Positions 46,808 through 49,141 of a stretch of DNA of 64,000 nucleotides are shown here, in pieces. Below the pieces are notes generated by a model. The model was not told where the DNA came from. It was given only the letters and a program-made list of their open reading frames with translations, and did not search any database. Each line of letters starts with the position of its first letter. The stretch's first letter is position 1. The position numbers were made by a program, and so were the translations under genes. This DNA is from Chrysomallon squamiferum (lineage: Eukaryota > Animalia > Mollusca), in assembly GCA_012295275.1 (NCBI GenBank), contig CM022665.1, forward strand, positions 16,120,001 through 16,184,000, given 5' to 3'.

Positions 46808-48504
46808 TCTGTCATCACAAATTTCATGAACTGTTTTATTGAATAAACTACAGTAGCATTTTAAACACTGGTCTGCAGATCACAAAGAAATGTCTAAAGT
46901 TATTTTTCAGTGCACAAACAAACCTTATCCTTAACCATCCTGGCAAGTTTCACAGGATGTGCGATATTCTGTATACAAGCAACTGCTCCTACACTAAGGT
47001 CATTCCCATCCATGATAATAGCATCCATTTCAACTTCACCATCATTATTCAACACTGATCCTGTACCTGGGGAAAAAAAAAAAAAAAAAAAAAAAGAAAA
47101 AATAAATAGTATAAAATAATATTTTCATTGCAGAATAAACATTCTAAAAAATTAATAATTAGAAATTCAGTCTAAATCCCCCCACAACCCCTCCAAAAAC
47201 CCTCTGCTAAAATCATATTTCCATTAATGCTTTAAAAAACATCTTATAAAATGTTAAAAATACATTGCTGAATGAATTAAACATTATCTAAAAATGTTAC
47301 AATTATTTCCATAACAATTCAATCTAAACAGAAAAAACCCAACAAGGATTTATTCAACAACAATATAACAAACTGTGTATCTCGTATTTAAATGCTTTTG
47401 TTTTATTTTATTTGTTTGTTTATTAAGATAATGGAAAGATGCAGTGTCATGAACACTCCATTAGACTGACTGATATTACAACTTCAACAAAGACTCAGTC
47501 TGTGGCAATGAACTAAATAAATAAAGATAAATCATCTCAGTAAGAAAGACTGCTTTGAATTAATTTCAAAGTATAAATGACCACAGTAGTTTTCACTAAT
47601 CAGTAAATAATTATTTTATTATTAGTTAAGATTTTTTCTTTAATTATATAAGAATAAAAAAAAGCTTTATTGTCACAAAGTCAGTCAACTTCTATTTTTG
47701 CATATAGGGTCATTCTGTATCAAATCACCCAATGGGTTAAACCCGACCATCTCAGATTTTTATGAAACTTGATATACTTGTTGATTGGATCCCACAGCAC
47801 CAGATTTTAGGCCAATCAGACCAGTGGTTTGGGAGATATGGCCCCTGAATTTTGAGATTTTTGGCCAAAATGGGTGTGACCTTTAAACCCTCATATCTCA
47901 GGAACTACTGGGCTAATCTTCATAAAATTGGTATTGTTGAAAAGGCAATATGACAAGTATTCCAAATCAGTCATACATTTTTTTCGGCTGATTTGACATG
48001 GAATGGCTCTATAACATTAAAAACAAACATTTATCTTACCCTCTGATAAACTAGTTCTGGTGAGATGTCTTCACAACATTTGTATAAATTCATACTTTCA
48101 TATATAATGTAATGCACATCTGTTATCCCTTGTTAAACTAATTTTGGGGAACTTTATTAAAGAGAAAATGGTCCAATGTGTGCACTAAGAGGGATTAGTT
48201 TGTGACCTGTCAGAAATACTGACCTTTAAAACAACATACCACATGCCCCATTGAATTTCAAAAAATTCATCTGTTGTTGTAAACAAATTAAAATGTTTAT
48301 TTTCATACCAGCATCAAATACAGGATCATCTTCCAAAACACTGACAGCAGCTTCTACAGCACTGACTGCAGAACCACCTTTTGACAAGATGTCAGCACCA
48401 GTGATAACAGCCTTTTTCACTCCACTGATGCTTGCTTCTGTGAGGCTGTCAGGGATTCCCCAAGCTCCACCATGAACAATTATTACACGAGTATCTGTAG
48501 ACAT
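43425..48504 (-). CDS. ASRGL1: Isoaspartyl peptidase / L-asparaginase (Ntn-hydrolase, ASRGL1-like), 317 aa, 6 coding exons
   Basis: Exons on -: 48504-48309, 47066-46924, 45901-45741, 44962-44832, 44183-44073, 43636-43425 (954 nt incl. stop), GT-AG with consistent phases. Motifs [28 protein letters not shown], autocleavage site [34 protein letters not shown] splice acceptor lies 2 nt before the ATG, implying an upstream 5' exon. Confidence 0.95.
45174..46388. repeat. 56-bp inverted repeat pair (45174-45229 and 46333-46388) bracketing ASRGL1 coding exon 3
   Basis: TTCTTCATTGCACTCTGTATCAGTTTGTTTATTTAAGTCAGATAAAACCCTTCATA and its reverse complement, with one mismatch. Confidence 0.9.
47707..48009. 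mobile_element. MITE with TA target duplication in the first coding intron of ASRGL1
   Basis: Flanked by TA on both sides. Imperfect 21-bp terminal inverted repeats: GGGTCATTCTGTATCAAATCA versus GAGCCATTCCATGTCAAATCA (reverse complement of the right end), 16/21 identical. More GC-rich than the host intron. Confidence 0.65.
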
Positions 48505-48967
48505 TTCTTAAAGAAAAAATATTGACATTTATTTACTCTTAAATACAAACATTAAAAACTACAAATTATCATCAAGAATAATTACTTATAATTAATAAAT
48601 AATAATCATTTAAAGCAAGGTGGTATAATAATAATAAATAATAATAATAATAATAATATTACAGGCATTTCATTATGAGTATCATTATCCCGTTTTTAAA
48701 TAATTTACTTTTTACCGTAGAAGATCAATTATGCACGTACACACTGAACTAGTTTGTGAAGGTTCACAGTGTTAAAAATACAAAAAAAAAAAAAAATAAT
48801 AATAATAAAAAAATAAACAACAAATAAATAAAGAAAAGTCCTCGATTTCAGTATACGTACAATATAAATGTTCCTTTCTTAGAGTTACTGCCCTTGAGCT
48901 TTCAACCAGATGCAATATCGAATATGAACTACAATTTGTAAATGTCCGGAAAATGTTAAACTAACAA

Positions 48968-49141
48968 TTAAAAGGTAGATGCTATATTTATCTGTTCCTC
49001 TGTTGCAGCTATTTTCTTTATTAACCTCTGTCTTTTATTTTGCAAATATCTCAAACGCCACGTTTTCAGTTTATACCCTACAAATATTCCAACGAAAAAT
49101 AACACAGTGTGTGATAACACCACTATTTTCGACGCAGCCAT
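48968..49141 (-). CDS. MTLN: Mitoregulin (MTLN/MOXI/LEMP)-like mitochondrial microprotein, 57 aa
   Basis: MAASKIVVLSHTVLFFVGIFVGYKLKTWRLRYLQNKRQRLIKKIAATEEQINIASTF*. Strong start context AAGATGG. A single TM segment with GxxxG is followed by a basic amphipathic helix. It aligns without gaps to my recollection of human mitoregulin (..GVLLGWQANRLRRRYLDWRKRRLQDKLAATQKKLDLA). Below the 60-aa ORF-track cutoff. Confidence 0.82.
   Translation of the reverse strand: MAASKIVVLSHTVLFFVGIFVGYKLKTWRLRYLQNKRQRLIKKIAATEEQINIASTF

Follow-up and report, generated by a model that had tools for sequence, protein, structure and literature searches.

A mitoregulin-like exon spliced onto the start exon of ASRGL1 in Chrysomallon squamiferum: a probable bicistronic mRNA

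The locus and its genes

The window, that is the whole stretch of DNA analysed, is 64,000 nt of Chrysomallon squamiferum DNA (CM022665.1, 16,120,001-16,184,000; assembly GCA_012295275.1). It is AT-rich, with a GC content of mostly 22-36%, and 127 of its 199 candidate frames were covered by Pfam scans. The features are collected in Table 1. The protein kinase C-type gene is presumably of the novel type, as its C2 domain stands at the front, and a 73-bp minisatellite (39 copies, 93% matches, CpG almost absent) lies inside it at 14095-16959. The chitin-binding and TSP1 exons, at about 51900-63100 on the minus strand, are likely to be a tandem array of small secreted proteins. Inspection by eye added an exon resembling TSP1 near 52440-52630 (-) and, at 53069 (-), a start that looks like a signal peptide; a partial duplicate lies at about 51560-51640.

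ASRGL1 is intact. Its six coding exons give a 317-aa open frame once spliced, five of the exon stretches pass the PF01112 cut-off, and Thr175 is aligned to residue 1 of solved beta chains. The protein has 65% identity with Haliotis rufescens XP_048258966.1 and 58% with Polyodon ASGL1, and the closest animal proteins among the few compared are those of abalone (61-65%), sea urchin (61%) and paddlefish (58%). Five sequencing runs containing the stretch were found, with no Ribo-seq among them. The RNA evidence comes from the four on record as RNA, all of one study, as short-read contigs only, mapped on 43000-49270. Such contigs lose rare forms and give no phasing of molecules, and a contig spanning two genes does not show a single transcript. 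Three joints within ASRGL1 were present in all four runs. The intron after coding exon 1 was covered by contigs at 47928-48335 (run X1) and 48037-48266 (X3), which represents a retained intron, pre-mRNA or DNA. In the same intron, a repeat at about 47620-48020 with an RNA contig depth of 90-680 and many loose ends is a multi-copy element.

The CpG content changes sharply at 48500. The observed/expected ratio is mostly below 0.5 over the kinase and ASRGL1 bodies (10000-48500), falling to about 0.1 in the latter, and mostly 0.65-1.15 for 48500-64000, with about 1 from 48501 upward. A boundary of this shape is expected under mosaic gene-body methylation. The rise fits an unmethylated 5' region and leaves the position of the transcription start unplaced.

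Table 1. Features of the window, with strand and basis.
Feature	Position	Strand	Basis and remarks
Protein kinase C-type gene	~8-33 kb (about 8100-32600)	+	Pfam: C2, two C1 domains, kinase, C-terminal domain
ASRGL1	43-48.5 kb	-	Pfam
ASRGL1 last exon	43229..43636	-	stop ends 43425; RNA to 43229 in X1
ASRGL1 coding exon 5, TGHGE	44073..44183	-	sequence, Pfam; joint 43635/44072 in 4/4 runs
ASRGL1 coding exon 4, nucleophile Thr175 (D-T-V-G), GRVGD	44832..44962	-	sequence, Pfam, RNA
ASRGL1 coding exon 3	45741..45901	-	PF01112; joints in 4/4 runs
ASRGL1 coding exon 2	46924..47066	-	PF01112; joint 45901/46924 in 4/4 runs
ASRGL1 coding exon 1	48309..48506	-	PF01112; RNA; ATG at 48504
Intron, 354 nt, GTACGT ... 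TTTAAG	48507..48860	-	joint in 4/4 RNA runs
Spacer between the ORFs	48861..48967	-	107 nt + 2 nt of next exon = 109 nt spliced; ATG and AATAAA absent
Mitoregulin-carrying exon	48861..49182	-	3' end from RNA; 5' end (49182) predicted from acceptor
Mitoregulin-like ORF, 57 aa	48968..49141	-	Pfam PF22002; RNA contigs
Predicted acceptor of mitoregulin exon	49183..49245	-	sequence: branch-like TACTGAT, T25 run, GCAG/G at 49183/49182
Candidate first exon, donor AAA/GTAAGT at 49385	49380..49530	-	sequence; hypothetical
Second mitoregulin-like ORF, 82 aa (72 from second ATG)	49946..50194	-	similarity to first ORF
Chitin-binding CBM_14 exons, n=3	51980-52138, 56634-56792, 62134-62319	-	Pfam
TSP1 exon	62833-63096	-	Pfam

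The mitoregulin-like reading frame, its twin and its exon

The 57-aa ORF matches the Pfam family MTLN with 42.2 bits (cut-off 27; E 7.5e-11) over profile positions 7-55 of 56, and it reaches 83.9 bits against a profile built without it. The features of the family, a length of about 56 aa, a single N-terminal hydrophobic segment and a basic C-terminus, are all present: the N-terminal half is hydrophobic, with a 19-residue hydropathy of up to 2.0 at the N-terminus, and the C-terminal half is basic, the net charge being +8. When 1.84 billion representatives were searched with HMMER, 24 relatives had E values up to 0.001, with identities of 35-53%. Those with names belong to Mactra antiquata, Crassostrea virginica, Stegodyphus mimosarum and Androctonus bicolor, and none carries a mitoregulin annotation; in scorpion, spider, clam and oyster the family members bear the labels hypothetical, uncharacterised or 'cellular protein'. 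The matches included no named vertebrate sequence, and the Atlas gave a mostly Chordata mitoregulin cluster at 0.81, which is a lead only. A tree of 29 rows was poorly resolved, and in it both mitoregulin-like ORFs of the window join a spider protein weakly (86/77, long branches). A solved mitoregulin structure was looked for and none was found.

Over 47 aa the second ORF has 49% identity with the first (E 1e-14), and a profile of 17 further matches, from which both window proteins were excluded, gives it 41.9 bits. It falls below the Pfam MTLN cut-off, 12.4 bits as compared to 27, and the Atlas gave no mitoregulin match for it. Its hydrophobic N-terminus is longer and its net charge only +1; the spider protein has a similarly long N-terminus. 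Between the two ORFs dN is 0.45 and dS 1.33 over 47 codons, which suggests that the second is a diverged, old tandem duplicate kept under selection. It also contains a possible internal acceptor, TTATAG/C near 50113, where its DNA aligns to the leader of the first copy. There is no third copy within the window.

The preliminary description had placed the mitoregulin ORF in the 5' exon of the transcript. This is probably wrong, because a branch-like TACTGAT, a T25 run and GCAG/G precede the ORF, the predicted acceptor lying 41 nt upstream of its AUG, and judged from these signals the ORF probably sits in an internal exon. The contigs over this exon reach 49131-48861 at most. The candidate first exon further upstream holds a 4-codon ORF (49402-49388) whose end, after splicing, would lie 43 nt ahead of the mitoregulin AUG. 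The window has 21 copies of GTAAGT (43 expected), and the motif alone therefore proves nothing. Another donor-like site, GAG/GTAAAT at 49927, follows the second ORF. It is conceivable, although improbable, that molluscs share this locus as a conserved multi-cistronic unit in which an upstream exon splices into the mitoregulin exon and a stress-sensitive, ATF4-like bypass directs part of the ribosomes to a mitochondrial microprotein that handles lipids and part to an enzyme acting on isoaspartyl peptides/asparagine. The upstream exon would then be either the paralogue (donor 49927), giving a three-protein mRNA, or the exon with the 4-codon ORF (donor 49385). If so, mitoregulin would be an old bilaterian gene that has been missed in invertebrates partly through hiding in the leaders of other genes.

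The splice to ASRGL1 and the use of the leader

The mitoregulin exon is spliced onto the ASRGL1 start exon. The joint 48861/48506, which skips 354 nt with GT..AG on the minus strand, was present in 4/4 runs, with 178-201 letters on its shorter side. The acceptor that the preliminary description had placed before the ASRGL1 ATG (...ttttttctttaag/AA ATG, exon start 48506) is thus in use in every run, the junction it had proposed from about 48861 to 48506 was found, with contigs spanning both ORFs, and the distance it had put at about 460 bp on the same strand was measured as 463 nt from the mitoregulin stop to the ASRGL1 ATG. It had named two candidate donors, and both sites exist, each with 6 of 9 consensus letters: /GTACGT at 48860 is the one used in 4/4 runs, and /GTTAGT at 48965 was rejected, as it was used in 0/4.

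Record 13 (X3, 1,182 nt) runs from 49060, inside the mitoregulin ORF, to 43399, through the whole ASRGL1 frame. The same joint is crossed by records 5 (X1) and 11 (X2), both of which begin at 49131. Over the mitoregulin ORF the contigs of the four runs cover 164, 164, 93 and 83 of 174 nt; none of them lies over its AUG, and 49132-49270 is without any contig. In both intron bins (48460-48669 and 48670-48879) the mean depth equalled that of the spliced contig alone in 4/4 runs, for X1 with 4.43 and 1.79 both expected and observed. The spliced contig fully explains this depth, which gives no hint that ASRGL1 starts inside the intron, and no mitoregulin 3' UTR is seen past the donor. Nor was a second leader for ASRGL1 assembled among the contigs of the four runs on 43000-49270. 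The picture opposed to a joint mRNA in the preliminary description, an independent ASRGL1 start together with a separately polyadenylated MTLN mRNA, was not seen in the contigs. A single spliced RNA across both ORFs is therefore very probable.

It is improbable that the assembler merged two overlapping monocistronic RNAs, one for mitoregulin that would end before 48861 and one for ASRGL1 that would start within the ORF or shortly after it. Contigs that cannot phase molecules would allow it, and the high CpG ratio from 48501 upward together with a TTCCGG motif at 48951 implies that the promoter-like DNA includes the mitoregulin exon. Moreover, the main isoform of human LINC00116 is short, about 440 nt (PMC6091870). 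However, the 107 nt available hold no canonical poly(A) signal: between the mitoregulin stop and the donor neither AATAAA nor ATTAAA occurs, the only variant hexamer being AAGAAA at 48880. A scan of the minus strand over 49200-48500 found AATAAA only at 49149, 49039, 49022 and 48533, in agreement with the earlier observation that none lies between the stop and 48533. Each run gave one unbranched contig over the ORF and the joint, and among the loose ends listed there was none near the donor save one unrelated 255-nt tail at 48945 (X1). The contig depth of the mitoregulin part as compared to the ASRGL1 body was mixed, 19.8 vs 18.4, 7.0 vs 4.5 and 4.1 vs 8.4.

In X1 and X2 the contigs start at the very same base, 49131, which lies 10 nt within the mitoregulin ORF. 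We guess that a polymorphism or a graph branch near the 5' end is the reason; the runs differ from the window sequence at several other sites. The shared start could also mean that the RNA truly begins near 49131 and that the mitoregulin frame is an untranslated relic in the ASRGL1 leader, or is expressed from a rarer isoform. Two of the four runs begin precisely there and none extends further, and the ORF has a single Met, its start. Against this, the ORF shows no damage, its start is strong and the acceptor upstream of it is well formed, dN is lower than dS against the paralogue, and a polymorphism or branch might cut contigs at one place just as well. We consider a true start at this site unlikely.

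The two ORFs do not overlap and each is a full-length homologue of a known protein. A fusion or read-through protein was rejected, because their frames are offset by 1 and the spacer has stops in each of them. No mitoregulin-like stretch was present in 127 asparaginase proteins (best 1.0 bit), and the N-terminal isoform extensions of Haliotis and Lytechinus bear no resemblance to mitoregulin. The mitoregulin stop lies 107 nt ahead of the exon junction and five further junctions lie behind. By established knowledge, such a layout would expose the mRNA to nonsense-mediated decay if the downstream ORF were not translated as well, and it may be counted toward translation of ASRGL1 from the same mRNA.

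In the spliced leader, the mitoregulin start has the context aag ATG G, with A at -3 and G at +4, and the ASRGL1 start the context taa ATG T, with T at -3. The ASRGL1 AUG is the next one after the mitoregulin AUG, 280 nt on, which suits leaky scanning. Dinucleotide shuffles of these 280 nt had 5.2 ATG as compared to 0 observed (a fraction of 0.00095 of 20,000 had none), genomic windows of equal length lacked ATG in 6 of 456 cases, and the ASRGL1 coding sequence has 7.95 ATG per 280 nt with a longest ATG-free run of 144 nt. When the peptide and the local codon use were kept, a fraction of 0.087 of 20,000 sequences was equally free of ATG (P about 0.09). The gap is thus only suggestive, as it is unremarkable once codons are controlled for. 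That the first AUG has a strong context and the second a weak one, opposite to the sloth case, speaks against leaky scanning being efficient.

Re-initiation usually declines after ORFs as long as 57 codons. ASRGL1 could still be translated from the same bicistronic mRNA by re-initiation after the mitoregulin ORF, or after the 4-codon ORF of an unseen first exon, in which case the ribosomes would bypass the mitoregulin AUG 43 nt further on. The strong context of the first AUG and the spliced spacer, 109 nt, AUG-free and of 31% GC, speak for this, and so does the candidate exon, whose donor at 49385 has 8 of 9 consensus letters and whose 4-codon ORF has A at -3; the STREMI uORF leads to stress-dependent translation of its partner (PMC13303939). 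On the other hand, the candidate exon is read from the sequence, and GTAAGT is common. As the route to ASRGL1, re-initiation appears rather unlikely.

The best explanation is that a single mRNA, including the mitoregulin AUG, serves both proteins. Most ribosomes would start at this AUG in its strong context and produce the 57-aa mitochondrial membrane microprotein, and a minority would pass it, find no other AUG and produce the 317-aa isoaspartyl peptidase/asparaginase at a lower level. We give this reading, mitoregulin from the first AUG and ASRGL1 at a lower rate via leaky scanning, a probability of roughly 0.58. That both ORFs are translated from one spliced RNA is quite probable, and leaky scanning is somewhat favoured as the main route to ASRGL1. 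The preliminary claim that one mRNA encodes both proteins is thereby upheld as regards the splice and the spanning contigs; for translation it stays an inference, from contigs without the mitoregulin AUG. It is likely that the linkage arose by read-through, which would have joined the small intronless ORF to the 5' region of the neighbouring gene while ASRGL1 kept its introns.

Linkage elsewhere and comparison with known systems

A word-based search with the mitoregulin ORF alone returned no syntenic locus. The broad alignment contained no conserved stretch. A pattern search with a narrower alignment gave 32 pattern matches in metagenome contigs, of which one was a related locus on a contig ending inside the ORF; none of 55 pattern matches in viral contigs and none of 7 in prokaryote genomes was such a locus. 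Mitoregulin-like accessions came from Mactra, Crassostrea virginica, Stegodyphus and Androctonus and those of ASRGL1 from Haliotis, Lytechinus and Polyodon, so that the two sets had no species in common. In two clusters near the oyster protein, 17 listed members (15/18 and 2/2) are on contigs of at least 1,026 nt, which would have room for a second ORF; other mitoregulin-like matches sit on contigs of 539-988 nt. The pairing of mitoregulin with ASRGL1 was not found in the literature searched, most subscription journals being outside its scope, and among the listed papers joining 'mitoregulin' and 'bicistronic' none was on this pairing, as judged by title and start of abstract. This agrees with the preliminary remark that no description of it was known. 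There is no evident shared pathway of the two proteins. CG7860 is, we assume, the fly homologue of ASRGL1. In the part searched of the supplement to PMC4528330, the FlyBase polycistronic table contains neither CG7860 nor the word asparaginase. In the available part of PMC13303939, both MTLN and ASRGL1 are absent from the file of bicistronic candidates. Where conserved small ORFs are arranged polycistronically, the arrangement itself is seldom conserved (10.1101/2022.04.24.489283).

The 57-aa protein resembles vertebrate mitoregulin (MTLN/LINC00116; PMC6091870, PMC11920140) in length, 57 as compared to 56 aa, in its N-terminal hydrophobic segment, its basic C-terminus and its membership of PF22002. 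The vertebrate protein is located in the mitochondrial membrane and binds cardiolipin (PMC6091870). The gene described here differs in being an invertebrate one, linked to ASRGL1 and with a tandem paralogue. A review, in its available part, holds that invertebrates are believed to lack mitoregulin, and the locus sets against this an actual mitoregulin gene of an invertebrate, accompanied by its diverged twin. If invertebrate copies often lie in the leaders of other genes, annotation would miss them, and a knockdown of the partner would remove both. The enzyme itself is an ordinary-looking isoaspartyl peptidase/L-asparaginase (Ntn hydrolase, PF01112), and its leader alone is unusual.

Drosophila sloth1-sloth2, homologues of SMIM4/Brawnin, are also an invertebrate bicistron with mitochondrial microproteins, and there leaky scanning to the second ORF has been shown (PMC9681215), as proposed here. 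The sloth ORFs encode two small, related peptides 5 nt apart, whereas here a microprotein and a 317-aa enzyme are separated by 109 nt and an intron, and the sloth start contexts are weak first and strong second (PMC9681215), as opposed to strong first and weak second here.

Bicistronic expression is likely, and the mRNA would then belong to a known class, the microprotein-first bicistronic mRNAs, with new partners. The human members STREMI-SLC35A4, MIURF-MIEF1 and PYURF-PIGY as well as ASDURF-ASNSD1 (PMC13303939) likewise have a conserved small protein, mitochondrial in the case of STREMI, upstream of a larger ORF that is unrelated to it, both on a single spliced mRNA, and likewise have partners older than their linkage. 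They are backed by long reads and Ribo-seq, whereas the pair described here is known from short-read contigs. In them the downstream ORF often has no introns (50%) and is retroposed (PMC13303939); here it is the upstream ORF that is intronless, and ASRGL1 has six coding exons. Comparable mRNAs in the animal group concerned were not found in the literature searched, and the locus enlarges the small set of those animal mRNAs in which a mitochondrial microprotein precedes an unrelated enzyme by a case that has RNA support and is rich in introns. By analogy, the arrangement may work like STREMI-SLC35A4 or MIURF-MIEF1, with different partners and with a downstream gene that has kept its introns.
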